A stretch of 22,503 bases of DNA from a virus (taxonomy: Duplodnaviria > Heunggongvirae > Uroviricota > Caudoviricetes). Numbering within the stretch: the stretch's first letter is position 1; every line of letters begins with the position of its first letter. This document shows, in pieces, positions 571 to 20,090 of this stretch. The notes beneath the pieces were generated by a model, which was not told where the DNA came from, did not search any database, and worked only from the letters and a program-made list of their open reading frames with translations. The stretch is from IMG/VR virus record IMGVR_UViG_2698536485_000016, positions 1-22,503 of that record, one strand, 5' to 3'. The position numbers and the translations under genes were made by a program.

Positions 571-620
571 TTGACTTTTTGAATAAAGTTGGGTAAATTT
601 GACCCAACGATGGGTTAATT
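571..620 (+). promoter_or_regulatory. pR'-like late promoter with Q-utilisation (qut) / pause region
   Basis: -35 TTGACT (571-576), 17-bp spacer, -10 TAAATT (594-599), start expected near 607; the sequence reads like the lambda pR' region as I recall it. Confidence 0.7.
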
Positions 621-740
621 CGCTCGTTGTGGTAGTGAGATGAAAAGAGGCGGCGCTTACTACCGATTCCGCCTAGTTGGTCACTTCGACGTATCGTCTG
701 GAACTCCAACCATCGCAGGCTGAGAGGTCTGCAAAATGCA

Positions 741-800
741 ATCCCGAAACAGTTCGCAGGTAATAGTTAGAGCCTGCATAACGGTTTCGGGATTTTTTAT
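741..800 (+). terminator. tR'-like intrinsic terminator (3' end of the short pR' leader transcript)
   Basis: Outer stem atcccgaaac (741-750) pairs with gtttcgggat (784-793), with an internal sub-hairpin, followed by a T-tract at 794-799; about 190 nt downstream of the predicted pR' start, as for the lambda 6S transcript. Confidence 0.7.
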
Positions 801-1196
801 ATCTGTGCAACAGGTAAGAGCATTCTCCTTTATGGGGCTTGGTTTAAATGCATTGAGTGCTCTTTCCGTTGTGCTGAATTAAGCGAATACCGGAAGCAGA
901 ACCGGATCACCAAATGCGTACAGGCGTCATCGCCGCCCAGCAACAGCACAACCCAAACTGAGCCGTAGCCACTGGCTATCCTGAATTCATCAGTGATAGT
1001 TACGCTGCGGCCTTCTACACATGATCTTCGTGAAAGCGGGTGACAGGAGGTCGCGCTAACAACCTCCTGCCGTTTTGCCCGTGCATATCGGTCACGAACA
1101 AATCTGATTACTAAACACAGTAGCCTGGATTTGTTCTATCAGTAATCGACCTTATTCCTAATTAAATAGAGCAAATCCCCTTATTGGGGGTAAGAC

Positions 1197-1520
1197 ATGA
1201 AGATGCCAGAAAAACATGACCTGTTAGCCGCCATTCTCGCGGCAAAGGAACAAGGCATCGGGGCAATCCTTGCGTTTGCAATGGCGTACCTTCGCGGCAG
1301 ATATAATGGCGGTGCGTTTACAAAAACAGTAATCGACGCAACGATGTGCGCCATTATCGCCTGGTTCATTCGTGACCTTCTCGACTTCGCCGGACTAAGT
1401 AGCAATCTCGCTTATATAACGAGCGTGTTCATCGGCTACATCGGTACTGACTCGATTGGTTCGCTTATCAAACGCTTCGCTGCTAAAAAAGCCGGAGTAG
1501 AAGATGGTGGAAATCAATAA
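1197..1520 (+). CDS. S: Class I holin, lambda S type, with dual-start motif (Met1-Lys2-Met3)
   Basis: 107-aa ORF with three hydrophobic segments and a charged C-terminus; MKMPEKHD N-terminus typical of the S107/S105 antiholin/holin pair; good SD upstream. Confidence 0.95.
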
Positions 1521-1980
1521 TCAACGTAAGGCGTTCCTCGATATGCTGGCGTGGTCAGAGGGAACTGATAACGGACGGCAGAAAACCAGAAATCATGGTT
1601 ATGACGTCATTGTTGGCGGAGAGCTATTCACTGATTACTCAGATCACCCTCGCAAACTTGTCACGCTAAACCAAAAACTCAAATCAACAGCCGCCGGACG
1701 TTACCAGCTTCTTTCCCGTTGGTGGGATGCCTACCGTAAGCAGCTTGGCCTGAAAGACTTCTCTCCGAAAAGCCAGGACGCTGTGGCATTGCAGCAGATT
1801 AAAGAGCGTGGCGCTTTACCGATGATTGATCGCGGTGATATTCGTCAGGCTATCGACCGTTGCAGCAATATCTGGGCTTCACTGCCTGGCGCTGGTTATG
1901 GTCAGTTCGAGCATAAGGCTGACAGCCTGATTGCAAAATTCAAAGAAGCTGGCGGAACGGTCAGAGAGATTGAGGTATGA
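1504..1980 (+). CDS. R: Endolysin, lambda R type (lytic transglycosylase)
   Basis: 158-aa ORF directly after the holin, overlapping its 3' end by 17 nt; translation matches my recollection of lambda R ([24 protein letters not shown]...). Confidence 0.95.
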
Positions 1981-2444
1981 GCAGAGTAACCGCGATTATC
2001 TCCGCTCTGGTTATCTGCATCATCGTTTGCCTGTCGTGGGCGGTCAATCATTACCGTGATAACGCCATGACCTACAAAGAACAGCGCGATAAAAAAGTCA
2101 GTGAGCTGATGCAGGCTACTACCACCATTACTGACATGCAGCAGCGCCAGCGTACTGCTGATGCACTTGATGCTAAATACACGAAGGAGTTAGCTGATGC
2201 GAAAGCTGAAAATGATGCTCTTCGGCGCAAGCTTGATAATGGTGGTCGGGTGCTCGTCAAAGGAAAATGCCCTGTGCCATCCTCAGCCGAAACCTCCAGC
2301 GCCTCCGGCATGGGCAATGATGCCACCGTCGAACTCTCTCCAGTTGCTGGACGAAACGTTCTCGGTGTCCGGGACGGAATTATCCGCGACCAAACAGTAC
2401 TGAGAACGCTTCAGGAATACATCAGGACGCAATGCCTTCGATGA
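1977..2444 (+). CDS. Rz: Rz inner-membrane spanin (i-spanin)
   Basis: Start overlaps the R stop (ATGA); N-terminal transmembrane segment followed by a coiled-coil-like periplasmic domain; position after the endolysin. Confidence 0.9.
2197..2403 (+). CDS. Rz1: Rz1 outer-membrane lipoprotein spanin (o-spanin), nested in the +1 frame of Rz
   Basis: 68-aa ORF wholly inside Rz; signal peptide with lipobox (LIMVVGC) followed by a proline-rich mature region ([11 protein letters not shown]); classical embedded Rz/Rz1 architecture. Confidence 0.75.
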
Positions 2445-2615
2445 TAGCGATAATTTTACTCATCATCCTTCACATCTGGCTCTGTAGACAGGGTGATGAT
2501 CACTTCTGGAGTGAATCCAGATTAAACATCTCATTGCTGATGCTTGATATTGAGCATCTGGCGCGCGGTAAGGGGCTGCGTTGAGATAAGAGCCAGTCAT
2601 TACAAATACCAGGAT

Positions 2616-2645
2616 TTAGCCTCGCATTCGCGGGGCTTTTTATAT
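2616..2645 (+). terminator. Candidate intrinsic terminator downstream of the lysis cassette
   Basis: GC-rich hairpin agcctcgc-attc-gcggggct (2618-2637) followed by TTTTTATAT. Confidence 0.5.
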
Positions 2646-2785
2646 CTGAATTTCACAGCGCATCTCACGCGCATATTAACGAGAGCCTTTCAGTAAGCGA
2701 GCCTGAGAAATTCCGTTATAGGTGGCGACCTCTCTCGGGCGGCTTTTCTGTGAGACAGGCTCACTTTCTAAAAGGTAAAGACGCT

Positions 2786-3304
2786 ATGAATCATCAATTG
2801 GCTAATCTCGATTTCCGGGACATGGTGGTTGTTTCTGGTGATCGCGTGATCACAACCTCCCGCAAGGTAGCAGCTTACTTCGACAAGCAGCATCACCACA
2901 TCATTCAGAAAATCGAAAAGCTAGACTGTTCGGATGAATTTCTAACCAGCAACTTTTCGCGGGTTACCTATGAACACAAGGGTAATCAGTATGTTGAATA
3001 TGAAATTTCCAAAGACGGCGCGATGTACATCATCATGTCGTTTACCGGCAAAAAAGCTGCCGCCATCAAAGAGGCGTTTATCAAAGCATTTAATTGGATG
3101 CGTGACAGGCTGATGGAGATGGCTCACTCATACCAAAGAGAGCACAACGAGTTAATGCTGGAGTTCATGAAGGAAAAGGATGTTGCCAGTATGTCAGGAC
3201 GCTTGCTGAACCGCTGGGGCAGGATCAAAAAACCGCAACTCATAGCAAGAATCGAAAGGCTTGAGCAGCAGGCGCAAATATCGATCCCCGGACTGCCAAA
3301 GTGA
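2786..3304 (+). CDS. Rha-family phage regulatory protein
   Basis: N-terminal segment VVVSGDRVITTSRKVAAYFDKQHHHIIQKIEKL and later MSFTGKKAAAIKEAFIKAFNWM fit the Rha domain pattern as I know it. ATG at 2786 preferred over the GTG at 2750 used by the ORF track. Confidence 0.75.
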   Translation: MNHQLANLDFRDMVVVSGDRVITTSRKVAAYFDKQHHHIIQKIEKLDCSDEFLTSNFSRVTYEHKGNQYVEYEISKDGAMYIIMSFTGKKAAAIKEAFIKAFNWMRDRLMEMAHSYQREHNELMLEFMKEKDVASMSGRLLNRWGRIKKPQLIARIERLEQQAQISIPGLPK

Positions 3305-3656
3305 CCATTCCAAAGCTCATCTACGGGTGGGCTTGATAATGAAACCGTGATTTACATCCCCACAATCCGGGTATGTAAAAGATAGTTCAGGCGAGAACAG
3401 ATTTAACTAAATCTGTGCACCACCAGTTGCGGCAGTACAGCGAAACAACCCAAGCCAGAAAGTGGGGAAATAACACTGGCAGCCACTGAAAGATGAACCT
3501 CCAGCCTTAAGGCAAAAAAGATTCTTTGTGGTGGCGGACTGATGGAAAGACATCGGTTATTGCAGAGGCCATTCAATGAGTGGTCTCGACAATGGCTTAT
3601 ACCCTACACGGGATAACTTAATTGATATCCCTTTTAACGGATAAACGGAGCCAACA

Positions 3657-3899
3657 ATGGCAGAGATTATTCCCATGACTGAAGAACAGAAATTCCAGTT
3701 AGAGATTTACAAACTGGTCATGAACCAGAACGCAGCCGCAGAAGAAGCATTTCAATTCATCGGCACTGACGAGTTGAAGCTTGAGCTATTCAAAATTCAC
3801 TTCCAGTCAGGTGGCGCTAATTCAGATATCACGACCAGAACTATCGAAGCGGTGCGTAAATCGAAGGAAGCGTTAGACCTGTTCACTACCGGAGCATAA
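3657..3899 (+). CDS. Hypothetical small acidic protein (80 aa)
   Basis: ORF with SD GGAG 9 nt upstream (acggagccaacaATG); no family recognised; sits just upstream of the small terminase gene. Confidence 0.5.
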   Translation: MAEIIPMTEEQKFQLEIYKLVMNQNAAAEEAFQFIGTDELKLELFKIHFQSGGANSDITTRTIEAVRKSKEALDLFTTGA

Positions 3900-3978
3900 A
3901 CATGGCAACTCAAGGTTTCGACAACCCATCCAAATTCCGCGATGAATGGGATAAGCAAGCAGAAGGGAAATAATCAAT

Positions 3979-4404
3979 ATGGCGACTGAGAAAAAGAATG
4001 TCGGTCGCCCTTCGGATTACCTACCGGAGGTGGCTGATGATATCTGTGCGCTGCTTTCCTCCGGGGAAAGTCTGGTTAAGGTTTGCAAGCGCCCCGGCAT
4101 GCCAGCAAAGGCTACTGTATTTCGCTGGCTGTCAGAGCATGAAGAATTTAGAGACAAGTACGCGAAGGCAACTGAGGCACGAGCTGATTCTATTTTCGAA
4201 GAGATATTCGAAATTGCTGACACTGCGATTCCAGATGCTGCTGAGGTGGCAAAGGCAAGACTTCGCGTTGATACCCGCAAATGGGCGCTGGCCCGAATGA
4301 ATCCCCGTAAGTATGGCGACAAGGTAACTAACGAGCTTGTCGGCAAAGACGGCGGCGCAATCCAGATTGAAACATCACCGATGAGCACTCTATTCGGAAA
4401 ATGA
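3979..4404 (+). CDS. Terminase small subunit (Sf6 gp1-like)
   Basis: 141-aa ORF immediately upstream of, and overlapping (ATGA), the large terminase; N-terminal DNA-binding-like region; matches my recollection of Sf6-type small terminase. Confidence 0.85.
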   Translation: MATEKKNVGRPSDYLPEVADDICALLSSGESLVKVCKRPGMPAKATVFRWLSEHEEFRDKYAKATEARADSIFEEIFEIADTAIPDAAEVAKARLRVDTRKWALARMNPRKYGDKVTNELVGKDGGAIQIETSPMSTLFGK

Positions 4405-5813
4405 CCTCGATTAATCCTATCTTTGAACCGTTCATTGAGGCGCATCGCTACAAAGTCGCCAAAGGCGGTCGAGGTAGCGGTAAGTCATGGGCAATTGCGA
4501 GACTGCTTGTTGAAGCGGCGCGTCGGCAGCCTGTGCGCATACTCTGCGCTCGTGAACTGCAAAACAGTATCAGCGATTCTGTAATCCGGTTGCTTGAAGA
4601 CACCATCGAGCGTGAAGGATATTCGGCTGAGTTTGAAATTCAGCGTTCAATGATTCGTCATCTCGGAACGAATGCTGAATTCATGTTCTACGGAATAAAA
4701 AACAACCCGACGAAGATTAAATCGCTCGAAGGTATTGATATCTGCTGGGTGGAAGAAGCGGAGGCGGTAACGAAGGAATCATGGGATATCCTGATACCAA
4801 CCATCCGTAAGCCGTTCTCTGAAATATGGGTGAGCTTTAACCCGAAGAACATCCTCGACGATACCTATCAGCGATTCGTCGTAAATCCTCCTGATGATAT
4901 TTGTCTGCTGACGGTGAACTACACCGACAACCCGCACTTTCCTGAAGTTCTCCGTCTGGAGATGGAAGAGTGTAAACGCAGAAACCCGACACTGTATCGT
5001 CACATCTGGCTTGGTGAGCCAGTAAGCGCAAGTGATATGGCAATCATCAAACGTGAATGGCTTGAAGCCGCAACCGATGCGCACAAGAAACTCGGATGGA
5101 AAGCGAAAGGCGCTGTTGTCTCTGCGCATGACCCGTCAGATACAGGGCCGGATGCTAAAGGTTATGCATCGCGTCACGGTTCGGTTGTTAAGCGCATTGC
5201 CGAAGGCCTGCTGATGGACATCAACGAGGGTGCTGACTGGGCTACTTCGCTGGCGATTGAAGACGGCGCTGACCATTACCTGTGGGACGGTGATGGCGTC
5301 GGTGCGGGCCTACGCAGACAGACAACGGAAGCGTTCTCCGGCAAGAAAATCACCGCCACGATGTTCAAGGGAAGTGAATCGCCATTCGATGAAGATGCGC
5401 CGTATCAGGCCGGAGCATGGGCTGATGAAGTCGTACAGGGTGACAACGTTCGCACTATTGGTGATGTGTTCCGCAATAAGCGAGCGCAATTCTATTACGC
5501 GCTGGCTGACAGGCTGTATCTGACATATCGGGCGGTTGTCCACGGTGAGTATGCAGACCCCGACGACATGCTGAGTTTCGACAAAGAAGCGATAGGCGAG
5601 AAGATGCTGGAGAAGCTGTTTGCAGAACTGACGCAGATTCAGCGCAAATTCAATAACAACGGGAAGCTGGAGCTAATGACTAAGGTCGAAATGAAGCAGA
5701 AGCTCGGTATTCCATCTCCTAACCTGGCTGATGCGCTGATGATGTGTATGCATTGCCCGGCATTGGTCCGCGAAGAAACAGAAATATACGTTCCCTCATC
5801 CTCCGGTTGGTAA
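4401..5813 (+). CDS. Terminase large subunit (ATPase/nuclease), PBSX / Sf6 gp2 type
   Basis: 470-aa ORF; Walker A GGRGSGKS near the N-terminus; acidic nuclease-domain residues C-terminally; canonical position. Confidence 0.95.
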   Translation: MTSINPIFEPFIEAHRYKVAKGGRGSGKSWAIARLLVEAARRQPVRILCARELQNSISDSVIRLLEDTIEREGYSAEFEIQRSMIRHLGTNAEFMFYGIKNNPTKIKSLEGIDICWVEEAEAVTKESWDILIPTIRKPFSEIWVSFNPKNILDDTYQRFVVNPPDDICLLTVNYTDNPHFPEVLRLEMEECKRRNPTLYRHIWLGEPVSASDMAIIKREWLEAATDAHKKLGWKAKGAVVSAHDPSDTGPDAKGYASRHGSVVKRIAEGLLMDINEGADWATSLAIEDGADHYLWDGDGVGAGLRRQTTEAFSGKKITATMFKGSESPFDEDAPYQAGAWADEVVQGDNVRTIGDVFRNKRAQFYYALADRLYLTYRAVVHGEYADPDDMLSFDKEAIGEKMLEKLFAELTQIQRKFNNNGKLELMTKVEMKQKLGIPSPNLADALMMCMHCPALVREETEIYVPSSSGW

Positions 5814-5815
5814 AC

Positions 5816-7942
5816 ATGGCAGAGACATTAGAGAAAAAACATGAGCGGATCATGCTCAGGTTTGACCGCGCCTATTCTCCACAGAAGGAAGTGCGCGAAA
5901 AGTGCATTGAAGCTACGAGGTTTGCTCGTGTCCCCGGAGGTCAATGGGAAGGAGCAACGGCGGCTGGAACTAAGCTTGATGAGCAGTTCGAGAAGTATCC
6001 TAAGTTTGAAATCAATAAGGTAGCAACTGAACTTAACCGCATCATTGCAGAATACCGCAATAACAGAATAACCGTTAAGTTTCGTCCTGGTGACAGAGAG
6101 GCAAGCGAAGAGTTAGCCAATAAATTAAATGGTCTGTTCCGTGCTGACTACGAAGAAACTGATGGCGGTGAGGCTTGCGATAATGCATTTGACGACGCTG
6201 CTACTGGTGGTTTCGGTTGCTTCCGTTTGACGTCGATGCTGGTCAATGAATACGACCCCATGGACGATCGTCAGCGTATTGCTATTGAACCAATATACGA
6301 CCCGTCGCGCTCTGTGTGGTTTGACCCTGACGCTAAGAAGTACGACAAATCTGACGCGTTGTGGGCGTTCTGTATGTATTCGTTGTCACCTGAAAAATAT
6401 GAGGCTGAATACGGAAAGAAACCTCCTACTTCTCTGGATGTAACGTCTATGACCAGTTGGGAATATAACTGGTTTGGTGCAGATGTTATTTACATAGCGA
6501 AGTATTACGAAGTTCGTAAAGAGTCTGTTGACGTCATCAGTTATCGACATCCAATCACTGGAGAGATTGCAACATACGACAGTGATCAGGTTGAAGATAT
6601 TGAAGATGAACTGGCAATAGCTGGATTTCAGGAAGTGGCAAGGCGCTCAGTGAAGCGCCGTCGTGTGTATGTATCCGTAGTGGATGGTGATGGTTTCCTT
6701 GAGAAACCTCGACGTATTCCTGGTGAGCATATCCCCCTCATCCCGGTTTATGGAAAACGCTGGTTCATTGATGACATTGAGCGTGTCGAAGGGCACATTG
6801 CAAAAGCAATGGATCCACAGCGTTTGTACAACCTTCAGGTTTCAATGCTGGCTGATACTGCAGCGCAAGACCCCGGTCAGATCCCTATAGTTGGCATGGA
6901 GCAAATTCGTGGACTTGAGAAGCACTGGGAGGCTCGCAACAAGAAACGCCCAGCGTTCTTGCCGTTGCGCGAAGTGAGAGATAAATCTGGCAACATTATC
7001 GCTGGAGCTACCCCGGCAGGATATACACAGCCTGCGGTTATGAATCAGGCATTGGCTGCATTACTACAGCAAACCAGTGCTGATATTCAGGAGGTTACAG
7101 GCGGCAGTCAGGCCATGCAGCAGATGCCAAGTAATATTGCTCAGGAAACGGTTAACAACTTGATGAACAGAGCAGATATGGCTTCGTTTATCTATCTGGA
7201 TAATATGGCGAAAAGTCTTAAACGCGCTGGTGAAGTATGGCTGTCAATGGCGCGTGAAGTGTACGGTTCAGAACGTGAAGTGCGCATCGTTAACGAAGAT
7301 GGAAGTGATGATATCGCTGTCCTGAGCGCACAGGTTGTTGACAGGCAAACAGGGGCTGTTGTTGCGTTAAATGACCTTTCTGTCGGTCGATACGATGTGA
7401 CGGTTGATGTTGGACCAAGCTACACAGCACGACGTGATGCAACGGTTTCTGTACTGACAAATGTCCTTAGCTCTATGCTTCCAACAGACCCAATGCGCCC
7501 GGCAATTCAGGGTATTATTCTGGACAATATCGATGGCGAAGGCCTTGATGACTTCAAAGAGTACAACCGAAACCAACTGCTGATATCTGGTATTGCAAAA
7601 CCACGCAATGAGAAAGAGCAGCAGATTGTTCAACAGGCGCAAATGGCAGCACAAAGCCAGCCAAATCCTGAAATGGTTCTCGCTCAGGCGCAAATGGTAG
7701 CAGCGCAGGCAGAAGCGCAAAAAGCAACTAACGAAACTGCTCAAACTCAAATCAAAGCATTTACTGCCCAGCAGGATGCGATGGAGAGTCAGGCAAACAC
7801 TGTCTATAAACTGGCTCAAGCCAGAAACATCGATGACAAAGCAGTGATGGAGGCAATACGCCTTCTGAAAGATGTCGCCGAGTCACAACAACAGCAATTC
7901 CAGTCACCACCACAGTCACCGGCAGACTTAATGCCGAGTTAA
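5816..7942 (+). CDS. Portal protein (P22 gp1 / Sf6 gp3-like)
   Basis: Large ORF directly after the terminase. I chose the ATG at 5816 (708 aa, start MAETLEKK, 2 nt after the terminase stop) rather than the extended 732-aa ORF-track start at 5744, which overlaps the terminase. Gln/Ala-rich C-terminal barrel-like tail. Confidence 0.88.
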   Translation: MAETLEKKHERIMLRFDRAYSPQKEVREKCIEATRFARVPGGQWEGATAAGTKLDEQFEKYPKFEINKVATELNRIIAEYRNNRITVKFRPGDREASEELANKLNGLFRADYEETDGGEACDNAFDDAATGGFGCFRLTSMLVNEYDPMDDRQRIAIEPIYDPSRSVWFDPDAKKYDKSDALWAFCMYSLSPEKYEAEYGKKPPTSLDVTSMTSWEYNWFGADVIYIAKYYEVRKESVDVISYRHPITGEIATYDSDQVEDIEDELAIAGFQEVARRSVKRRRVYVSVVDGDGFLEKPRRIPGEHIPLIPVYGKRWFIDDIERVEGHIAKAMDPQRLYNLQVSMLADTAAQDPGQIPIVGMEQIRGLEKHWEARNKKRPAFLPLREVRDKSGNIIAGATPAGYTQPAVMNQALAALLQQTSADIQEVTGGSQAMQQMPSNIAQETVNNLMNRADMASFIYLDNMAKSLKRAGEVWLSMAREVYGSEREVRIVNEDGSDDIAVLSAQVVDRQTGAVVALNDLSVGRYDVTVDVGPSYTARRDATVSVLTNVLSSMLPTDPMRPAIQGIILDNIDGEGLDDFKEYNRNQLLISGIAKPRNEKEQQIVQQAQMAAQSQPNPEMVLAQAQMVAAQAEAQKATNETAQTQIKAFTAQQDAMESQANTVYKLAQARNIDDKAVMEAIRLLKDVAESQQQQFQSPPQSPADLMPS

Positions 7943-7955
7943 CCAGGAGTAATCA

Positions 7956-8840
7956 ATGGAAAACGAACTGATCATCGACGGTCAGGTTATTGACCTGTCT
8001 GAAACACAGGAAAATGCAGAAGAAACCATCATCCAAACAGAGTCACAGCCTGAGAATGAAAGCCAGGATGACAACGGTAAAGAGGTGGCAACTGAGCCTG
8101 AAAAAACCGAAGAGACACCAGAAGATTACGCCTTGCGTATTGGTGATGAAGAAATTCAGCTTAACGCTGACGATGATGATCACATTGACGGGCAACCTGC
8201 ACCGCAATGGGTGAAAGATCTTCGCAAAGGCTTCAAAGAAACACAGAAAGAAAACCGTGAGTTGCGCCGCCAGCTTGAGGAAGCATTAGCCAAGCCAGCG
8301 GAACATCAGCAACCACAACCAGACGCTATTCCACCAAAACCGACTCTTGAGTCGTGTGATTATGACGAACAGGCGTTTGAACAGGCATTGACTGATTGGC
8401 ATGAGAAAAAAGGCCGTGTCGAACAGCAGCAGCAACAAAAACTACGTCAGCAACAGGAATACCAACAGCGTTTCCAGCAAAGGGTAGAAGCGCATAAACA
8501 ACGGGCAGCCAAACTTCCTGTGAAAGATTATCAGGAAATGGAGGCCATTGTTCTTAGTGAGCTACCACCAATTCAGCAGGAAATCATCATTCACTGTGCA
8601 GACGAAGGCTCTGAACTACTCGCCTATGGCTTAGGTAAGAGCCAGCAATTACGCCAGCGTGTAGCCGCTGAGACAGATCCAATTCGCGCAGCATTCCTCT
8701 TGGGGCAGATTAGCAAACAGGTAAGCCTTGCTCCAAAACCAAAGAAAGCCATCAAGCCAGAGCCGGAAGTACGTGGTGGCGGTGCTGATGCGAAACAAGA
8801 CGAATTCAACAAATTATGCCCCGGCGCAAAAATCGAATAA
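7956..8840 (+). CDS. Scaffolding protein
   Basis: 294-aa highly charged, Glu/Gln-rich, helical-looking protein between portal and coat; SD aggag upstream. Confidence 0.75.
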   Translation: MENELIIDGQVIDLSETQENAEETIIQTESQPENESQDDNGKEVATEPEKTEETPEDYALRIGDEEIQLNADDDDHIDGQPAPQWVKDLRKGFKETQKENRELRRQLEEALAKPAEHQQPQPDAIPPKPTLESCDYDEQAFEQALTDWHEKKGRVEQQQQQKLRQQQEYQQRFQQRVEAHKQRAAKLPVKDYQEMEAIVLSELPPIQQEIIIHCADEGSELLAYGLGKSQQLRQRVAAETDPIRAAFLLGQISKQVSLAPKPKKAIKPEPEVRGGGADAKQDEFNKLCPGAKIE

Positions 8841-8851
8841 GGAAAAGATAA

Positions 8852-10127: not shown

Positions 10128-10155
10128 AAGGGGCTTACGCCCCTTTTATGTTTTA
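10128..10155 (+). terminator. Intrinsic terminator or attenuator after the coat gene
   Basis: Hairpin aaggggc-ttac-gcccctt (10128-10145) followed by TTATGTTTT. Confidence 0.6.
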
Positions 10156-10351: not shown

Positions 10352-10808
10352 GATCGTCCTTTTTGCGCTTCGTAAGTTTGCTATTGCTTCTAATGCATCG
10401 CTGACTGATGTTGAGCCGCAATCAATTGAAGATGGTGTAAATGATCTGGAAGATATGATGTCCGAGTGGATGATTAACCCCGGCGAGATTGGTTACGCTT
10501 TCGCAACTGGAGATGAGCAGCCATTACCAGATGATGAGTCAGGTCTTCCAAGAAAATACAAACACGCAGTAGGCTATCAGTTATTGCTGAGAATGCTATC
10601 TGATTACAGCCTTGAGCCAACTCCGCAAGTTCTCAGTAACGCCCAACGCTCATATGATGCCTTGATGACCGACACTCTGGTTGTTCCTTCAATGCGACGA
10701 CGTGGAGATTTTCCTGTAGGGCAGGGTAATAAATATGACGTGTTCACATCTGACCGATATTATCCAGGCGATCTTCCTCTGATTGATGGCGATATCCCAA
10801 ACGCATAG
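10326..10808 (+). CDS. Head-to-tail adaptor / tail accessory factor (P22 gp4-like)
   Basis: 160 aa; N-terminal region (TKGEIVLFALRKFAIASNASLTDVEPQS) resembles P22 gp4 as I recall it; conserved position after coat. Confidence 0.8.
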   Translation: MATVLTKGEIVLFALRKFAIASNASLTDVEPQSIEDGVNDLEDMMSEWMINPGEIGYAFATGDEQPLPDDESGLPRKYKHAVGYQLLLRMLSDYSLEPTPQVLSNAQRSYDALMTDTLVVPSMRRRGDFPVGQGNKYDVFTSDRYYPGDLPLIDGDIPNA

Positions 10809-10816
10809 GTGAATAA

Positions 10817-12235: not shown

Positions 12236-12936
12236 TGGCGGATTCGAATCTCAATGTGCCGGTAATCATCCAAGCTACGCGGCCCGATACATCAGTCCTT
12301 CCACGCAATATCTTCTCGCAGTCGTATCTGCTTTACGTTATCGCACAGGGCACTGATGTTGGTAACGTGGCTAACAAGGCCAACGAGGCCGGACAGGGCG
12401 CTTATGATGCACAGGTCAGGAACGATGAGCAGGATGTTATTCTGGTCGATCACGAAGAAAGAATTCGTCAGCTCCGCATCGACGTAGACGACCATGAAAT
12501 CCGTATTACTGCAAATACCAATGCAATCGCGTCGCTGGATGTCAGACTAACCACGGCTGAAGGTGAAATAGTCACCTTGCAGGCTGATGTCAGTGCTCTT
12601 GATGGTAGAGTGACGGAGGCTGAAGGAAATATTTCTGCATTGCAGGACGATTACGTATCGAAAACAGCAACAGCAACACAATCGCTGGCATCCCCCCTCA
12701 ACGTAACAACATCCTATTCAGTCGGCGGCACCAAGGTTATCGGTGCTCGCCAGACAGGATGGACAGCGGCAACCGGAACGGCACTCCTCGGCGCATTCAA
12801 CGCTAACCAGTCATACACTGTCGGCACTACGTACACGCAATCCGAAGTCTCAGCACTCGCTACAGGTTTGCAGCAGGCGCGGCAGCGTATTCTGGCGCTT
12901 GAAACGGCACTTAGATTACATGGGCTGATTGACTGA
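12235..12936 (+). CDS. Tail needle / plug protein (P22 gp26-like)
   Basis: 233 aa; conserved N-terminus ([37 protein letters not shown]) and heptad-repeat coiled-coil core; start overlaps the upstream stop (TAATG). Confidence 0.9.
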
Positions 12937-13391
12937 TGATTACATTCAAACCAACGCGAAACATCGACCTGATCGAAGCAGTAGGAAATCACCCTGACAT
13001 CATCGCCGGGAGCAACAACGGTGATGGATACGACTACAAACCTGATTGCAGTTACTTTGAGGTGAACGTGCACGGTCAGTTTGGCGGCATTGTTTACTAT
13101 CAGGAGATTCAGCCGCTGACCTTCGATTGCCACGCCATGTACCTGCCAGAGATTCGCGGCTTCAGCAAGGAAATCGGGCTGGCGTTCTGGCGATACATTC
13201 TGACTAACACCACCGTTCAGTGCGTCACATCGTTCGCTGCACGCAAATTCCGCCACGGTCAGATGTATTGCGCAATGATTGGCCTTAAGCGTGTAGGAAC
13301 CATCAAGAAATACTTCAAAGGCGTGGATGACGTGACGTTTTACAGCGCCACACGCGAAGAACTAATCGACTTCCTGAATCACGGGAGATAG
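12936..13391 (+). CDS. gp14-like virion assembly / infectivity protein
   Basis: 151-aa ORF in the position of P22 gene 14 between the needle and ejection-protein genes; start overlaps the upstream stop (TGATG). Confidence 0.6.
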   Translation: MITFKPTRNIDLIEAVGNHPDIIAGSNNGDGYDYKPDCSYFEVNVHGQFGGIVYYQEIQPLTFDCHAMYLPEIRGFSKEIGLAFWRYILTNTTVQCVTSFAARKFRHGQMYCAMIGLKRVGTIKKYFKGVDDVTFYSATREELIDFLNHGR

Positions 13392-13393
13392 CC

Positions 13394-14086
13394 ATGTTAT
13401 ATGCATTTAAGCTGGGCAGAAAACTGCGCGGCGAGGAACCTTATTGCCCTGAAAAAGGCGGGAAAGGTGGTAGCTCTGATAAAAGCGCAAAGTATGCAGC
13501 AGAAGCCCAGAAGTATGCCGCAGACCTGCAAAATCAGCAGTGGCAGACGATCATGAAAAACCTTGCTCCGTTCACGCCGCTTGCGGAGCAGTATGTTAAA
13601 CAGCTTCAGAATCTTTCCAGTTTAGAAGGTCAGGGGCAGGCACTTAATCAGTATTACAATTCTCAGCAGTATAAAGACCTTGCAGGTCAGGCTCGTTACC
13701 AGAGTCTTGCTGCTGCGGAGGCGACTGGCGGACTTGGTTCGACAGCTACAAGCAATCAACTTGCTACGATTGCTCCGACTCTCGGTCAGTCGTGGTTATC
13801 AAACCAGATGAGCAATTACAACAATCTGGCAAACGTTGGGCTTGGTGCGCTGCAAGGTCAGGCAAACGCTGGGCAGACATACGCCAACAACATGAGCAGC
13901 ATTGCACAGCAAAGTGCAGCACTTGCCGCTGCTAATGCCAATAAACCATCAAGTCTTCAGACTGCAATTAGCGGTGGCACGTCTGGTGCGATTGCCGGTG
14001 CAGGTCTTGCCAGTCTTTTGGGAACATCAACGCCTTGGGGCGCTGGCATTGGTGCTGGTATCGGATTGCTTGGCTCGTTGTTTTAA
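13394..14086 (+). CDS. Ejection (DNA-transfer) protein, P22 gp7-like
   Basis: 230 aa; Gly/Ala/Gln-rich C-terminal half ending in a hydrophobic segment; first of the three ejection-protein genes. Confidence 0.75.
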   Translation: MLYAFKLGRKLRGEEPYCPEKGGKGGSSDKSAKYAAEAQKYAADLQNQQWQTIMKNLAPFTPLAEQYVKQLQNLSSLEGQGQALNQYYNSQQYKDLAGQARYQSLAAAEATGGLGSTATSNQLATIAPTLGQSWLSNQMSNYNNLANVGLGALQGQANAGQTYANNMSSIAQQSAALAAANANKPSSLQTAISGGTSGAIAGAGLASLLGTSTPWGAGIGAGIGLLGSLF

Positions 14087-14095
14087 GGGGTAATC

Positions 14096-15391
14096 ATGGC
14101 TACTTGGCAAGGAACAAACGGCGGATTGTTGGCTGGTATCGGCGGCGTCAACTCAAACGCTCCGAGCGTAAATGACATCGGCAATACGCTTCAGCTTATC
14201 AGGCAGAACAATGATATTGAGCGTTCAGGCGCTAACAATGTTGGGCTGACTGCTTTGCAAGGCCTTTCAGGTATTGCAGGGGTGTTTCAGCAGGAAAAGC
14301 AGGCTCAGCGGCAGAAAGAATTTCAGCAGGCGTACGCTAATGCTTATGCGTCTGGTGATCGCGGTGCTTTGCGTCAGTTGGCTACTCAATATCCAGACCA
14401 GATTGAATCCGTTCGTAAAGGCATGGGATTCATTGATGAAGACCAGCGTAATTCTATCGGCACCTTAGCGGCTGGTGCACGCCTTGCGTCATCGTCTCCA
14501 GAAGCAATGCAATCATGGCTGCAAAACAACGCCAAGGAACTGACTCGCGTCGGTGTTGACCCTAACAGCGTTGCTCAGATGTATCAGCAGAACCCTTCAG
14601 GATTTGGTGAGTTTGTTGATCACCTTGGAATGACCGCGCTTGGTCCGATTGATTACTTCAATGTTCAGGACAAGATGGCTGGTCGTGAGATTGACCGAGG
14701 CAGGCTGGCAGAGACAATCCGCAGCAATCAGGCCGGAGAAGCACTAACAGCTCGAGGTCAGGACATCCAGATACGTGGACAGAACATCAGCGCACAGAAT
14801 GCTGCTCTTTCCCGCGAAATACAAAGAGCAGAATTACAAGAAAAGGCTCTGGACAGACAGATAGCCAGAGAAAGCAATCAGTTAAAGCTTGAAGAGCTAA
14901 AACAGAAACAGGCAGATGTTAGGCAAAAGGCTGACATAGCCCGCGCTGACAGGCAGGCCGCCGCTCAGGGTGCAGTTGATACGTTCAGCACCGCGCTTGA
15001 TTCTCTCAACGAGATAGAGCAAAGCCCCGGCCTTTCAAAAGCAGTAGGAATTCGCTCAGCGTTTCCGACAGTTCCTGGCTCTGATGCGGCTAACTTTGAA
15101 GCAAGGCTCGACACCTTTAAAGCTCAAACATTCCTTCCTATGGTGCAGTCCCTTAAGGGGATGGGTGCTCTTTCAGATGCTGAGGGTAAAAAATTATCCG
15201 ATGCGGTTGGTGCCCTAAGCCCCAAAATGAGTGAAAAGGCTTTTCGTGACTCTATCGGAAAGATTAGAAATCAGCTTGAAAGCAAGTTGAGCACTGTTAA
15301 AAAACAGTTTGATTATCAGGAGCCGGTTCAGAATATGCCAGGGCAACAATCTACTACTGGCAGTAACTTTTCTTCACTATGGGGTGATTAA
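14096..15391 (+). CDS. Ejection (DNA-transfer) protein, P22 gp20-like
   Basis: 431-aa ORF, second of three consecutive internal virion protein genes; Gln-rich with coiled-coil-like stretch. Confidence 0.7.
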   Translation: MATWQGTNGGLLAGIGGVNSNAPSVNDIGNTLQLIRQNNDIERSGANNVGLTALQGLSGIAGVFQQEKQAQRQKEFQQAYANAYASGDRGALRQLATQYPDQIESVRKGMGFIDEDQRNSIGTLAAGARLASSSPEAMQSWLQNNAKELTRVGVDPNSVAQMYQQNPSGFGEFVDHLGMTALGPIDYFNVQDKMAGREIDRGRLAETIRSNQAGEALTARGQDIQIRGQNISAQNAALSREIQRAELQEKALDRQIARESNQLKLEELKQKQADVRQKADIARADRQAAAQGAVDTFSTALDSLNEIEQSPGLSKAVGIRSAFPTVPGSDAANFEARLDTFKAQTFLPMVQSLKGMGALSDAEGKKLSDAVGALSPKMSEKAFRDSIGKIRNQLESKLSTVKKQFDYQEPVQNMPGQQSTTGSNFSSLWGD

Positions 15392-17388
15392 TGGCTAAAG
15401 CATGGAAAGATGTTATCGCCTCTCCACAGTATCAGGCGTTAGCACCAGAACAAAAAGCGCAGGCTCAGGAGCAATACTTCAATGAAGTCGTGGCCCCGCA
15501 AGCCGGAGAAAATGCAGAGCAGGCTAAGCAAGCTTTCTATGCTGCCTATCCATTGCCATCTGTGCAGCAAGTGGAGACACAGCAACCAGTTGCACAGCAA
15601 CAACCACAGCAAAGTGGATTTATGTCTGATCTTGGCGAAGCAGTAAAAGAGACTGGTCGCGGACTGGTGCAGGCTGGCGTGAACGTGGCAAACATACCTG
15701 CATCAGTTGCCGATGCTGTAACAAGCGCGGCGGCTTGGGCTGGCGGTAAACTCGGCATTGGCGATGGTACATATCAACCAGCGCCACGAGTAACAACGCA
15801 GGGATTAGAGCAGGACTTTGGCCTTCGGCAAGGTGCGCTGACTCCACAAACGACAGAGGGAAGGGTATTTGCTGAAGCATTGCCTTACCTCACACCTGCT
15901 GGCGTTGAGAGAGCGGCGGTACAGGCACCAACACTTGCTGGTCGAATTGCTCAGGGGGCAACTCGCCTTCTAGCAGAAAACGCAGTTGGATCACTTGCTG
16001 CAAATAGTGCGAAAGATGATGCGGAAGCACTCGCCACCGATTTAGGCGTTGGTGTACTTGCTGGCGGTGCTATTAACGCTGCTGGACGTGGATTAGGTGC
16101 TGCTTATCGTGGCGTTCGTGGTGCTATCACGCCAGAAGCGCAGCAGGCTATCAGATTTGCAGAGCGTGAAGGAGTTCCTCTGCACACCACAGACCTGTTA
16201 CAACCCACTTCCCGCGTCGGAAAAATGGCGCAGACTACAGCAGAAAATATCCCTCTGGCTGGCACAAGCGGAATGAGAGCAACGCAACAGGAAGCGAGAA
16301 GCCAGTTGGTGCAGAGATTTGCTGATAAATTTGGTGAGTATGATCCAGCGGTTGTTATTGACAGCCTTAAAGCGAAAACATCAGGAATTCGTCGTGCTGC
16401 CGGTAATCGACTGGAGCAGGTTCAGAATGCTATGGCTGGAGTAAACATTCAACCTGCGCGAGCAATTCAGCAGATTGATACAGAAATATCTAACCTGCAG
16501 AAGCTTGGTAAGGTTGCTGATAACGAGACTATTTCAAAACTTCAGTCATATCGTGATGAGCTTGTTCGCAATGCTGGTCCTGATGGTCCGGTCAATCTGG
16601 ATTTGAAGCAATTAAGCGATCTGCGCAGCCAGTTCAGAATGGACGTGAAGGGTGAGCGACCAGTGTTACCAAACCGTTCCGATGCTGCCATTCAGCGAGT
16701 TTACAAGGCGATGACCGACGATATCAATGGTGCCATTGGTCAGAATCTTGGCAATGATACTCTTCGTAAATATCAGCAGGCCAATGCCGTCTACGCTGAC
16801 GAAGCGGCGAAACTAAAGAATACCAGGCTGAAGAATGTTCTCATGAAAGGCGACCTGACGCCGGAAGTTGTCAACAACATGCTATTCAGCAAGAACAAAT
16901 CGGAAATTAAGACTCTGTATAACTCAGTTGGTCGTGTTGGCAGGGCGCAAATGCGCAATGGCATCATTGGAAAGGCGATGGAGAAATCAGGTGGTTCCCC
17001 TGACCAGTTCCTTCGGCAACTTAACATCCTGCAAAACCAGACTGGCATCACATTTAAAGGTCAGGAAGCCGCTTATCTGAAAGGATTGAAAAACTACCTG
17101 CAATCCACGCAACAGGCTGCAAAAGCAGCAGTAACAACACCAACAGGGCAGCAAACCATCCCGTTCATTATCGGATATGGGACGGCAATGAACCCGGCGA
17201 CAACTGGCGCAGCGGTAAGCTACGGACTTCTTACTCGCGCCTATGAGAGCGAGCCATTCAGAAATGCAATGCTCCGAATGGCAAACACCCCACGCGGATC
17301 AACAGCGTTTGAGAAAGCCATGCAGCAGGCGCAAAAGGCCATTAACGCCATTACTCAGGGGGCTAAGTCTGATGCGTTGTCAGAATAG
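15391..17388 (+). CDS. Ejection (DNA-transfer) protein, P22 gp16-like
   Basis: 665-aa ORF, third ejection-protein gene, start overlapping the upstream stop (TAATG); Gln-rich N-terminal region. Confidence 0.7.
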   Translation: MAKAWKDVIASPQYQALAPEQKAQAQEQYFNEVVAPQAGENAEQAKQAFYAAYPLPSVQQVETQQPVAQQQPQQSGFMSDLGEAVKETGRGLVQAGVNVANIPASVADAVTSAAAWAGGKLGIGDGTYQPAPRVTTQGLEQDFGLRQGALTPQTTEGRVFAEALPYLTPAGVERAAVQAPTLAGRIAQGATRLLAENAVGSLAANSAKDDAEALATDLGVGVLAGGAINAAGRGLGAAYRGVRGAITPEAQQAIRFAEREGVPLHTTDLLQPTSRVGKMAQTTAENIPLAGTSGMRATQQEARSQLVQRFADKFGEYDPAVVIDSLKAKTSGIRRAAGNRLEQVQNAMAGVNIQPARAIQQIDTEISNLQKLGKVADNETISKLQSYRDELVRNAGPDGPVNLDLKQLSDLRSQFRMDVKGERPVLPNRSDAAIQRVYKAMTDDINGAIGQNLGNDTLRKYQQANAVYADEAAKLKNTRLKNVLMKGDLTPEVVNNMLFSKNKSEIKTLYNSVGRVGRAQMRNGIIGKAMEKSGGSPDQFLRQLNILQNQTGITFKGQEAAYLKGLKNYLQSTQQAAKAAVTTPTGQQTIPFIIGYGTAMNPATTGAAVSYGLLTRAYESEPFRNAMLRMANTPRGSTAFEKAMQQAQKAINAITQGAKSDALSE

Positions 17389-17477
17389 CTTCGCAAACAC
17401 CAGGAACGTGCAAAAACCAAATATGTAGAACGCAATATTCAGCATATCTCTGTGCATAAATCCTCCGTAACGGATGG

Positions 17478-17738
17478 TTATCTGCTGTCTTTTTTATATA
17501 GCTTCTTGAGCGTATCAAAGACAATTTTCTTAACCATATCAGATTGTTGTTCTGCCATACGCTCTGCATCGTCAATGTAAACTGATGCAGAGCTTTGTTT
17601 ATCCAATGATTCCTCAATCGCTGCAATTATCTCTGAGTTCAGCGACCTGTTATTCATCTTCGCACGCTGCTTAATTTTCGCGTGGAGTTCATGCGGAAGT
17701 CTCAAGTGAAACTGCGCCTCGTCGTATTTGCTGTACAT
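17478..17738 (-). CDS. mnt: Mnt-like repressor (ribbon-helix-helix, Arc/MetJ superfamily)
   Basis: Translation (FHLRLPHELHAKIKQRAKMNNRSLNSEII...DAERMAEQQSDMVKKIVFDTLKKLYKK) aligns along its length with P22 Mnt as I remember it. ATG at 17738 chosen (SD GGTGAGG upstream); an upstream ATG at 17771 is possible. Confidence 0.8.
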   Translation of the reverse strand: MYSKYDEAQFHLRLPHELHAKIKQRAKMNNRSLNSEIIAAIEESLDKQSSASVYIDDAERMAEQQSDMVKKIVFDTLKKLYKKDSR

Positions 17739-17869
17739 CCTTGATGCCTCACCAGTTGGGTGGAATGGCATCGTAACCTACTGGATAAATACTCAATAAT
17801 ACCATTTTGGTATGCAATCACATCATGGTTGCATCATATCATTCGTCTGGAGCAATGAAATGTCAGATA

Positions 17870-18370
17870 TCACCTACTCAACAGATGGTCAGCAACCATG
17901 TTTGCTGCCTTATAAGCTATAGCAGCTTCATCAATGGTGTTGAATCTCCCAAGGGTTATGTTTTTACCTGAGACATTTATCTGAGCTTGCCATTGATTTC
18001 TGGCTTGACAGAAAGTTACCCCCTTGATCCCAGCATTGCTATTTCGAGGTCCGACATTTAATGCATTTACGACTCTGCTGACATCCCTAAGGTTTGAGAT
18101 TGCGTTATTTCTTCTGTTTCTATCAATGTGGTCAATCTCTTGTTTGGGCCATTCGCCATATACATACAGCCAGGCAAGTCTATGTGCAAAATATCTTACG
18201 CCATCAATATTAATTGCGTTATATCCATAAGAAATTGTGCCAGCAACTTTCCCAACAGCACCTCTGGCGCTTAATTTCTTTTTCCAAGTGAAAATTCCTG
18301 TTTCTTTATTGTAATCGAGAACCTCCATAAGGCGCTCCCGAGTTACTACCTCGTGACGTCTCTTACTCAT
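17870..18370 (-). CDS. HNH endonuclease with C-terminal AP2-type DNA-binding domain (homing-endonuclease-like)
   Basis: HNH_3-like motif ([38 protein letters not shown]) followed by an AP2-like segment (GIKGVTF...WQAQI...[22 protein letters not shown]). ATG at 18370 with strong SD (GGAG, 6-nt spacer) chosen over the TTG start at 18412 in the ORF track. Confidence 0.85.
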
Positions 18371-18392
18371 TATTTTCTCCGGAATGTTTATT

Positions 18393-20060
18393 ATGCCAGA
18401 ACAATTATACAACGTTGTTGTTTCACAACCAAGTCAGTTATTTACTTTAGCTCGCTCGTTTAAAGCAAATGCCAATGGCAAAATTTATATCGGAAAAATT
18501 GACACTGATCCGGTAAATCCTGAAAACCAGATCCAGGTTTATGTGGAGAATGAAGACGGCTCTCACGTTCCTGTTTCGCAACCAATCATCATTAACGCTG
18601 CTGGTTACCCTGTATATAACGGACAGATTGCCAAGTTTGTAACCGTGCAAGGCCATTCTATGGCTGTTTATGATGCGTACGGCGCGCAGCAGTTTTATTT
18701 TCCGAATGTACTGAAGTACGACCCGGATCAGCTTGAGCAGCGTCTTGCATCATCAATAGGTTCTTCCATGGTTGGCATTACCGATGGAAGGACAGTGCAT
18801 GATTTTATATCTGTTGATGACTATCAGAGAATTGGTGATATCCGTGGTTACGGGGCGACAAATGAAAACGTAAACCCTGTCAACATTGCCGTTGCCACAG
18901 GTGAGGCCAATGGTCTACTGAAGGTGCCTAATGGAGTATGGAGCGGTAATTTTGAGTTAAAAAATAAAACTAGCATAACTGGTGAATCCATAACATCAAC
19001 AGTTGTTAACGTTCCTATAAACACGATCGGAATAAAGCCTGAGGGCTCTGACGTTAGAGGGATTACTATATCAAACATGAATCTCCAAGTTAACGGATCT
19101 GTTGCTGGCGGTCCTCCTGTTGGTAGCGGGGTCGGAATAGACATGTCTTTTTGCGGAAAGGCAGTTAACTGTGAGTTTAACAACCTTTATCTCGATTTCT
19201 TTGATATTGGTTACAACGCTGGATATGCTGATTTTTCAAATATTTATAACAATATGAGGTGCAATAACAACCGAATCGGGATTAACCTATCCAGTAACGG
19301 AACAATTATTCAAAACGTGTTCAATGGGTGTTATGTTGCAAACTGGACGGCTTATGCCGTGAAAGTTTCTGGCGCTAGCAACCAGATATTCAACGCGCTT
19401 AACATGGGGCATAACGGATCCGCCAATGCTTATTTCCTGCAGATAGATACGAACTCAAGAGGAATCATATTTAATCAACCTAACTTCGAAATGGACGTTG
19501 CAAACGGGAAAATTACAGCAGGAGGCCAGGCTATCGTGGTCGCCTCTAGTTCTGAGGTTACATTTAACTCCCCGACATTCAACAGGGTTAACGCTGCAGG
19601 GGCAAATGCCTACCTGTTCCGGGTTAGGGGTAACGCTGTAGTACGTATAAACGACCCTCAAATCTACAACGACGATGGCACAATAGGTCACCTAATTATC
19701 AGTGATGAAGCTGTTGTTTATCTCAATGATCCAAATCGAATATTCACAGTAATTACTATCCAAGGTAATGGGAGGCTAATACGTGTTGACGAGAAGATAT
19801 CAAACTCCCCTAACTATACAAACATTCTTACTTTAAAATCTGGAGACATAATTAACTTTGGATTCTATGCAAGATATGCAATGGCGGTTCCAGATTTTCA
19901 CTCCAATACTATGCCATCACCATTCAAGTACGCAGTGAACTTTGACACTTACCATAGCAGTGGAACTGCCATTGCTCGAGTGTATGATACAACTACAGGA
20001 AATGGAGTATCAAACATCAATGTTACATGTTTCGTACAGGCGTGGAGAGAGGATAGATAA
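18393..20060 (+). CDS. Tailspike protein: conserved P22-type head-binding N-domain plus divergent parallel beta-helix receptor-binding domain
   Basis: N-terminal ~115 aa ([53 protein letters not shown]...) match the P22/Sf6 tailspike particle-binding domain; the remainder is Asn/Gly/Val/Ile-rich repeats typical of a beta-helix. Start could be 18384 or 18393. Confidence 0.85.
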
Positions 20061-20090
20061 AAATAGGGCGGTCTCCCCGCCCTATTTTTA
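20061..20090. terminator. Bidirectional intrinsic terminator between the convergent tailspike and acyltransferase genes
   Basis: Perfect 9-bp stem atagggcgg / ccgccctat with a 5-nt loop, flanked by AAAA on the left and TTTTT on the right. Confidence 0.7.

Follow-up and report, generated by a model that had tools for sequence, protein, structure and literature searches.

How are the late genes of a temperate phage expressed when the one promoter at their head is followed, over some 19.5 kb, by several intrinsic terminators and by two genes on the opposite strand? The question is raised by a stretch of 22,503 nucleotides from a virus of the class Caudoviricetes (IMG/VR record IMGVR_UViG_2698536485_000016, positions 1 to 22,503; hereafter the window), for which an original prediction, made from the letters and their open reading frames (ORFs), had proposed that all genes from S to the tailspike form a single Q-dependent operon transcribed from the late promoter pR'. 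When the whole window was compared with phage records by megablast, 417 records matched, and the top matches, Escherichia phage vB_EcoP-683R2 (683R2), Shigella phage Sf6, HF4s and HK620, all members of Lederbergvirus, were 95-97% identical across 59-70% of the window. The window corresponds to the right half of a phage or prophage of the P22-like, Sf6/HK620 type. With a probability that we put at roughly 85%, we read positions 607-20090 as the canonical late operon of a temperate phage of the P22-like group (Lederbergvirus, Sf6/HK620 subgroup), headed by a lambda-type (type 1) Q cassette. Each cis element and gene of the operon can be identified, and no internal constitutive promoter is predicted; that antitermination takes place here, and how far the transcript extends, we infer from lambda and P22.

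A lambda-type Q cassette heads the late genes

The window begins within a Q gene, and the fragment encoded here is 98% identical to lambda Q (170/174 residues) and 95% identical to P22 gp23 (over 174 aa), with a match to PF03589 (E 1.9e-51). Downstream of it lies pR', whose hexamers and spacer (TTGACT-17-TAAATT, 571-599) are identical to those of the annotated P late promoter of P22. Within this promoter, the Q-binding element (QBE) and the pause element were placed according to what is established for lambda (PMC9388147). An alignment of window positions 529-1200 with lambda 44510-45189 (97% identity) revealed 4 substitutions in its first ~280 columns, which take in the promoter, qut, the 6S leader and tR', and none in the tR' stem. 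Three substitutions fall within 571-611, where the AACGAT pause element is kept, and two in the pR' spacer match P22, not lambda. Register with lambda sets the +1 at ~606/607, so that the start at 607 in the original prediction corresponds to the lambda +1. The terminator tR' (740-800) is itself identical to its lambda counterpart and marks the 3' end of a 6S-type short transcript. This region therefore has the make-up of a Type 1 (lambda-type) Q cassette: a Q-family gene upstream, a pR' with a QBE and a pause element, and a tR' before the first late gene. P22 gp23 is interchangeable with lambda Q (PMC8022706).

The gene layout, drawn from the ORF list, Pfam matches and the annotations of related phage records, comprises 20 co-oriented genes after the pR' segment, for lysis, rha, packaging, head, ejection and tailspike. 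As originally proposed, the genes from S (1197) to the tailspike are all on the + strand, and the ORFs and Pfam matches also bear out the identities given to the two minus-strand genes, mnt and an HNH endonuclease gene. The succession of lysis, terminase, portal, scaffold, coat, gp4/10/26/14, gp7/20/16 and tailspike genes on one strand is the late-operon synteny of P22-like (Lederbergvirus) phages.

No constitutive promoter is predicted within the operon

Two calibrated promoter scans, one with a sigma-70 position weight matrix (PWM) and one by consensus, predicted no constitutive sigma-70 promoter before the virion or tailspike genes, in agreement with the earlier remark that no strong internal promoter is obvious. 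In the PWM scan of the whole window, pR' ranked first at 13.6 bits. Calibration on P22 promoters gave 15.6 bits for Pant, 13.6 for P late, 13.1 for PL, 12.6 for Pmnt, 11.7 for PR, 11.4 for Psar, 10.2 for Poop and 9.7 for PgtrA. On the + strand, PWM counts were at or below the first-order Markov background at every threshold, and the consensus scan found 18 promoter-like sites against 25.5 expected. Intergenic + strand candidates reached 6.7 bits at most in 800-1200, 2580-2800, 3300-3660, 3890-3985 and 10120-10330. From terS to gp16, the gaps between genes measure only -26 to +42 nt, leaving no room for intergenic promoters.

Four hairpins directly follow stop codons

All four hairpins that the original prediction had placed in and at the end of the operon were recovered within a few bases of those places, each a significant fold and each directly after a stop codon. 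Folding gave -26.9 kcal/mol for tR' (z -5.2), -16.5 kcal/mol for the hairpin after Rz (z -4.0; a stem of 8 bp with 6 GC pairs), -14.3 kcal/mol for the hairpin after the coat gene (z -2.7), and -25.2 kcal/mol on the + strand and -24.0 on the - strand for the bidirectional hairpin at 20064-20085 (z -7.8 and -7.3), which is flanked by A and T runs. Direct folding was used because a simple terminator scan misses both tR', with its branched stem, and the 20064 hairpin, in which the extension of the stem uses up the T run. Across the whole window, terminator-like motifs were no more numerous than in shuffled sequences (22 versus 19.1, and 7 versus 4.6 in a second scan), and the evidence for the hairpins therefore lies in their strength and their placement after stops, not in enrichment.

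The two internal hairpins were compared with those of related phages. The post-Rz hairpin recurs unchanged in HK620, ahead of the kilA-like gene hkbK, and P22 carries a homologue of it (GCCTCGCAGATGCGGGGCGTTTTT) upstream of rha; 683R2 lacks both the hairpin and rha. It thus moves with the accessory module (rha here and in P22, kilA-like hkbK/hkbL in HK620) and not with the lysis genes, and by this distribution the post-Rz terminator is the 5' boundary of a variable rha/kilA module and does not belong to the lysis cassette. HK620 and Sf6 share the post-coat hairpin with the window letter for letter, and 683R2 differs from it by one loop change; P22 also has a hairpin at this place, but with another sequence, so that here it is the position that is conserved. 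It is annotated as 'tGP5' in HK620 and 't coat' in Sf6, and the P22 record notes a coat stem-loop.

On the precedent of lambda and P22, these elements suggest the following course of late transcription. The promoter pR' would fire constitutively and, without Q, polymerase would pause at the sigma-dependent element (+16/+17) and terminate at tR', yielding a 6S-type RNA of ~190 nt. Once accumulated, Q would bind the QBE in the pR' spacer, load onto the paused complex and, together with NusA, form a nozzle on the RNA-exit channel, making the polymerase resistant to hairpin-dependent pausing and termination. The Q-loaded complex would then read through tR', the post-lysis hairpin (2618) and the post-coat hairpin (10128), before crossing ~1 kb of C-rich, nearly untranslated RNA antisense to mnt and the HNH gene to reach the tailspike gene. 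A polymerase loaded with Q has been described as passing pause and termination signals unhindered for thousands of base pairs, the formation of hairpins being blocked in its extended RNA-exit channel (PMC9388147). The central proposal of the original prediction, a single Q-dependent pR' transcript running through tR', two internal terminators and two antisense genes, is in this way supported by sequence, by homology and by the literature on P22-like phages.

What, then, would the internal terminators be for? The P22 late operon has one promoter only, and its inner terminators are described as not unique and of unknown role; partial termination, or the halting of spurious transcription in the absence of gp23/gp24 antitermination, has been suggested (PMC8022706, the phage L paper). 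Under the first of these, the hairpins would be attenuators, setting tiers of expression (lysis above rha to coat, and these above the completion, ejection and tailspike genes) through partial termination or stabilised processed 3' ends. Such a role would suit the post-coat hairpin, which keeps its position in P22 despite a different sequence and follows the genes for scaffold and coat, the most abundant virion proteins; the P22 record notes similar stem-loops for HK97 and lambda. All the hairpins, however, are of the standard hairpin and U-tract type, the class ignored by a Q-loaded polymerase (PMC9388147), and the gain or loss of the post-Rz hairpin together with the rha/kilA module fits the insulation of a moron better than a control of stoichiometry. 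We consider attenuation unlikely and favour insulation against transcription that has not been antiterminated: the internal terminators would act mainly on polymerases not modified by Q, shielding the prophage from spurious or read-through transcription and delimiting the accessory modules (rha, oac), and they may possibly also stabilise the 3' ends of processed mRNA.

At the far end of the operon, the original prediction had late transcription stop at the bidirectional terminator. This is not borne out, since 20064-20085 is of the standard type and no stronger than tR' (-26.9 versus about -25 kcal/mol); with tR' bypassed, the sequence gives no reason for this hairpin to stop a Q-loaded complex. 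The late transcript may instead pass 20064-20085 and continue antisense through the acyltransferase and int genes, leaving the hairpin to serve oac and those + strand transcripts that are not antiterminated. In Sf6, the equivalent element is annotated as the oac terminator, and the end of processive Q antitermination has been called an open matter, with speculation about non-standard 'Q-dependent terminators' made of a hairpin, a spacer and a U-tract (PMC9388147). Set against such read-on are the extended, A/U-flanked stem, which is the most stable per length in the window, and a U-rich run at 20121-20140, although this lies ~35 nt downstream, a spacing that exceeds the one proposed for 'Q-dependent terminators'. 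We regard transcription past 20085 as an evenly balanced proposition.

The region between gp16 and the tailspike gene

In P22-like phages, the variable region between gene 16 and gene 9 has been named the 'ant moron' and comes in ten types among sixteen genomes (Villafane et al. 2008). The P22 record lists sieA, orf59a and mnt on the minus strand, then Pant/Pmnt, arc, sar, ant and t_ant, and finally gene 9. In a comparison with Kapi1, P22 and Gally, arc, ant, sar and t_ant proved to be absent from the window, and just mnt and an operator-like palindrome are left of the P22 immI region (mnt, arc, ant, sar, Pant/Pmnt, t_ant), while Kapi1 keeps arc, ant and t_ant (ACCCAGCTTCGGCTGGGTTTTTTT). A remnant with mnt only may represent a degrading immI region (PMC8022706). 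The Mnt protein of the window is intact and 49% identical to that of P22, and the palindrome, ATACCAtttTGGTAT at 17799-17813, is perfect as read directly and not the same as the operator of P22; its copy in E. coli VE-T9 has 2 changes.

If a promoter lay in the mnt-HNH region, as a surviving Mnt-regulated Pant, or inside the antisense HNH gene, the tailspike would be a separate unit independent of pR' and Q. P22 has its strong Pant at the homologous place, pointing to gene 9, and the intact Mnt, the palindrome and the distance of ~1 kb between gp16 and the tailspike gene would all be in keeping with such an arrangement. The Pant-homologous site, however, scores 6.4 bits, against 15.6 in P22, and has poor hexamers (ATGGCA-17-AATACT) and a 2-nt deletion relative to the spacer in P22. 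The best + strand match within 17380-18400 reaches only 8.5 bits, and in Sf6 and 683R2, which lack the ant-region, the tailspike gene comes directly after gp16. A surviving Pant was rejected on its score and its weak -10 and -35 hexamers, and a tailspike unit of this kind appears improbable. With no promoter predicted for it, the tailspike gene must therefore be expressed from upstream, as the late operon would provide.

To get there, polymerase would have to cross 1,004 nt that separate the stop codon of gp16 from the start codon of the tailspike gene and in which the + strand is essentially untranslated save for a remnant ORF of 20 codons. The C/G ratio of this gap is 1.30, against 0.91 elsewhere in the operon, and in 78-nt windows climbs to as much as 2.2 immediately ahead of the tailspike start. 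A polymerase lacking antitermination would, by inference, be vulnerable to Rho here, and tailspike expression would be especially dependent on Q. On both strands, 17386-17505 and 17776-17872 folded no differently from shuffled sequences, so that mnt and the HNH gene are without clear intrinsic terminators and t_ant has no equivalent.

The original prediction had also suggested that collision between late transcription and that of mnt and the HNH gene could couple the lysogenic and lytic states. For this we find no support: with ant missing, Mnt has no antirepressor to control, and in a lysogen no collision would occur, because pR' transcripts stop at tR' without Q.

Several points weigh against reading the whole of 607-20090 as one Q-dependent operon. 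The operon is known here from its sequence alone; the N-terminal 33 residues of Q lie outside the window, so that the identities given for Q refer to 174 aa; and the PWM was built from approximate compiled sigma-70 frequencies. Weak or activator-dependent P22 promoters (PRM, PsieA, PsieB) score just 4.6-5.9 bits, a class to which the scan is blind, and a weak or activated promoter may thus lie within the operon. In addition, an intact Mnt next to an operator-like palindrome suggests that something in 17.77-17.86 kb is still regulated.

An HNH cassette in the 5' end of the tailspike gene

Besides being crossed by the operon, the HNH gene sits as an insertion in the 5' end of the tailspike gene. 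Its product matches PF13392 (E 2e-16, 59.7 bits, cutoff 24.8) and more weakly AP2, below the cutoff of that family. It is 100% identical to the Kapi1 copy and at most 45% identical to members of a very large family of free-standing phage HNH proteins that includes T5 F-TflV (43%). Of 5,426 complete E. coli genomes, 431 show a match to part of the 1.1 kb around the gene, but the HNH gene itself is found in 15, and all of these copies are at least 99% identical.

The structure of the insertion became apparent by alignment to HNH-free alleles (Gally, HK620, P22, Sf6 and 683R2). The original ribosome-binding site (RBS) and start of the tailspike gene, at 17849-17874 (GGAGCAATGAAATGTCAGATATCACC), are followed directly by the 3' end of the reversed HNH gene, whose stop codon (TGA here, TAA in Kapi1) falls within old tailspike codons 4-5, and the old start now heads the 20-codon remnant ORF, which reads into the antisense HNH sequence. 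At its other end, the cassette carries a diverged copy of the tailspike start region, TCCGGAATGTTTATTATGCCAGAACAATTA, which provides a new RBS, the ATG at 18393 and five codons, placing the insertion point after tailspike codon 5. From P22 to Sf6, HNH-free alleles have a conserved start region; in the HNH-bearing allele, the first ~15 nt past the ATG differ from it at about half of the positions.

In the five comparison loci, the shared block begins within codon 5 of the recipient's own tailspike start, and its left neighbours vary, being ant/t_ant, two different mnt (Arc-family) contexts or gp16. To the right it reaches ~18730, the end of the head-binding domain, and is co-inherited with one allele of that domain, after which the receptor-binding domains differ. 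A catalytic domain, together with sporadic occurrence and near-identical copies in varied contexts, is what characterises a free-standing HNH homing gene, and the locus fits a homing-endonuclease cassette with a recoded, self-immune target. That it is an active, self-contained cassette specialised for the conserved 5' end of P22-like tailspike genes is a tentative proposal, with the odds somewhat against it. The HNH gene goes unmentioned in the Kapi1 preprint, and nothing relevant on HNH or homing endonucleases in the ant moron turned up in a literature search.

A candidate promoter for the HNH gene (TTGGTT-17-TATAAT, 12.2 bits, rank 4 in the window) has its hexamers in the recoded tailspike codons 4-14, facing late transcription head-on. 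The HNH ATG, with a GGAG 6 nt before it, lies 34 nt past the end of the -10, and the score of the candidate is comparable to that of P22 Pmnt. Taken by itself, the score is not above chance, with ~2.5 matches of at least 12 bits expected per strand, and it is the position of the candidate that is suggestive. One might speculate that the HNH protein is expressed from it in the prophage or in early infection and shut off by head-on, Q-antiterminated late transcription, and that the enzyme could cleave superinfecting relatives that lack the gene.

As a result of the insertion, the tailspike has a cassette-derived N-terminus in place of MTDITANVVVS and keeps its length and its full head-binding domain (PF09008, the P22-type domain; E 3.5e-64, residues 4-116 of the 558-aa ORF call that begins at 18384). 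The starts annotated in Kapi1 and RefSeq map to the ATG at 18393. An in-frame ATG lies 9 nt upstream, at 18384 (MFI-MPEQ...), and ORF finders call this longer form. From ~18730 onwards, the tailspike has an unrelated receptor-binding domain; this part (18730-20060, ~440 aa) has no sequence relative among solved structures, and its sole match in the phage collection is a marginal one, over 80 aa, to Dickeya phage tailspikes. The GC content is lower here (42% in 18730-20060) and in the adjacent acyltransferase gene (32%).

A conserved non-coding core between rha and the DUF2560 gene

Between the end of rha and the DUF2560 gene lie 352 nt (3305-3656), and within this gap an invariant, non-coding core of ~130 nt is 93-96% identical in P22, HK620 and 683R2, despite their differing accessory neighbours. 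It recurs at 90-99% identity in 183 phage records, including those of the lambdoid phages mEp234, mEp235 and mEpX2, where it is mostly unannotated. In 113 viral contigs, the flanks of the core were of 55 different kinds on the left and 61 on the right. Among its homologues, indels of 1-2 nt speak against coding in the upstream part, and both a 57-aa minus-strand ORF (3403..3576) and a coding reading of the core were rejected on this ground for that part. A mini-ORF of 24 codons at the 3' edge of the core (ATG 3543) may, by its aligned position, be the 'orf25' of P22.

Folding of the gap as a whole is better than that of shuffled sequences (z -4.0); for the core alone it is not convincingly so (z -1.9 on the + strand, -1.1 on the - strand). 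An identification of the core as Rfam RF03044 (Proteo-phage-1) was rejected: the core scored 18.7 bits (E 0.25-0.5), below the gathering threshold of 42, and the similarity is confined to stretches that are single-stranded in the consensus, the stems being largely unpaired. At gathering thresholds, Rfam found no family anywhere in the window. Just past the rha stop, a stable hairpin at 3313-3334 (9 bp, UACG loop; AAGCTCATC-TACG-GGTGGGCTT), without a T tract, is shared with HK620 and 683R2 and lies at the junction where these phages either carry rha or lack it.

Layout of the window

The features of the window are collected in Table 1. The lysis region (1197..2584) is 98-99% identical to HK620 and 683R2, and the genes in 3657..10123 are 96-97% identical to those of Sf6, HK620 and 683R2, whose annotations agree. 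The small ORF at the end of Rz (2432-2584) encodes a hydrophobic N-terminus and is equally conserved in HK620 and 683R2 (98-99% at the DNA level); a Pfam search with its product gave no match. ARAGORN found no tRNA or tmRNA in the window.

Table 1 Features of the late operon and its surroundings, in window coordinates
Feature	Position	Strand	Remarks
Q antiterminator gene, 3' part	1..528	+	window begins at ~codon 34/207; PF03589
pR' late promoter	571..611	+	-35 TTGACT 571-576; -10 TAAATT 594-599; QBE in spacer; pause element AACGAT 606-611
tR' terminator	740..800	+	hairpin 740-794 plus T6 795-800
Lysis cassette	S 1197..1520, R 1504..1980, Rz 1977..2444, Rz1 2197..2403	+	annotations of HK620 and 683R2
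Conserved 50-aa ORF	2432..2584	+	overlaps Rz end
Post-Rz hairpin	2618..2647	+	hairpin 2618-2637 plus TTTTTATAT / UUUUUAUAU, to 2647
rha-family accessory gene	2750..3304	+	likely start ATG 2786; PF09669 and PF10549; position as P22 rha
Invariant non-coding core, ~130 nt	3428..3557	+	within rha-DUF2560 gap
DUF2560 gene	3657..3899	+	
terS (Sf6-type)	3979..4404	+	
terL	4401..5813	+	
Portal	5816..7942	+	
Scaffold	7956..8840	+	
Coat	8852..10123	+	
Post-coat hairpin	10128..10155	+	hairpin 10128-10145 plus TTTTATGTTTT / UUUUAUGUUUU, to 10155
orf61, gp4, gp10, gp26, gp14, ejection proteins gp7, gp20, gp16	10166..17388	+	gaps -26 to +9 nt
mnt repressor homologue	17478..17738	-	PF03869 (Arc) and PF11423; antisense to late operon
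Remnant of P22 Pant/Pmnt control region	17765..17813	.	alignment to P22 and Gally
Orphaned original tailspike RBS and start	17849..17922	+	GGAG 17849-17852; ATG 17860, MSDIT
Free-standing HNH endonuclease gene, 166 aa	17870..18370	-	PF13392 (HNH_3)
Candidate HNH promoter	18432 to 18404	-	TTGGTT-17-TATAAT; prediction
Tailspike gene, substitute start (MPEQLYN...)	18393..20060	+	PF09008
Bidirectional intrinsic terminator	20060..20090	both	between tailspike (+) and acyltransferase (-) genes
Acyltransferase (oac-like) gene, then integrase gene	downstream of tailspike	-	

Relation to known systems

A late operon with a single promoter, Q antitermination, internal terminators and read-through of the ant region is already known from lambda and P22, and annotated in HK620 and Sf6; for P22, late transcription through the ant moron into gene 9 has been published (Villafane et al. 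2008, citing Adams, Brown & Casjens 1985). What the window offers is a clean and well-delimited example, in which a lambda-identical Q cassette appears grafted onto Sf6-type virion genes and in which the tailspike gene is set apart by 1 kb of untranslated antisense sequence, so that its expression would be a sensitive read-out of antitermination. As summarised by Villafane and colleagues in 2008, the 1985 work of Adams, Brown and Casjens was reportedly an experimental study of P22 gene 9 expression. The operon also bears on where and how Q antitermination ends, and the HNH cassette and the non-coding core are likelier than the operon itself to yield something new.

With lambda, the window shares a nearly identical Q, promoter, QBE, sigma-dependent pause element, 6S leader and tR', and its S-R-Rz genes follow the same leader of ~400 nt; its downstream virion genes, in contrast, are those of a P22/Sf6-type podovirus and not the head and tail genes of lambda. 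With P22 it shares the order of P late, t late, lysis, rha, orf80, terminase to gene 16, a minus-strand mnt and the tailspike last, and in both the coat gene is followed by a hairpin and the tailspike gene by a terminator. It differs from P22 in lacking sieA, orf59a, arc, sar, ant and t_ant, in its decayed Pant, in the HNH cassette in the 5' end of the tailspike gene and in head genes of the Sf6/HK620 sequence type.

HK620 and Sf6 have structural genes 95-97% identical to those of the window and an identical post-coat hairpin, to which HK620 adds an identical post-Rz hairpin, and the HK620, Sf6 and P22 records annotate pR'/qut/tQ (P late, t late) and the post-coat and terminal terminators as they are found here. 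Sf6, however, has no ant-region, and HK620 has hkcB/hkcC together with mnt and ant remnants; neither carries the HNH cassette, and the receptor domains of their tailspikes differ from that of the window. Sf6 and phage L have tRNA genes in the late leader, unlike the window. As for the HNH gene, it resembles the free-standing enzymes of the T5 F-Tfl and T4 mobE type in its HNH_3 domain, its sporadic spread, its conserved target and its recoded copy of that target, but it differs from them in lying in the late operon of a temperate phage, on the opposite strand, where it splits its target ORF after codon 5 and supplies a replacement RBS and five codons.

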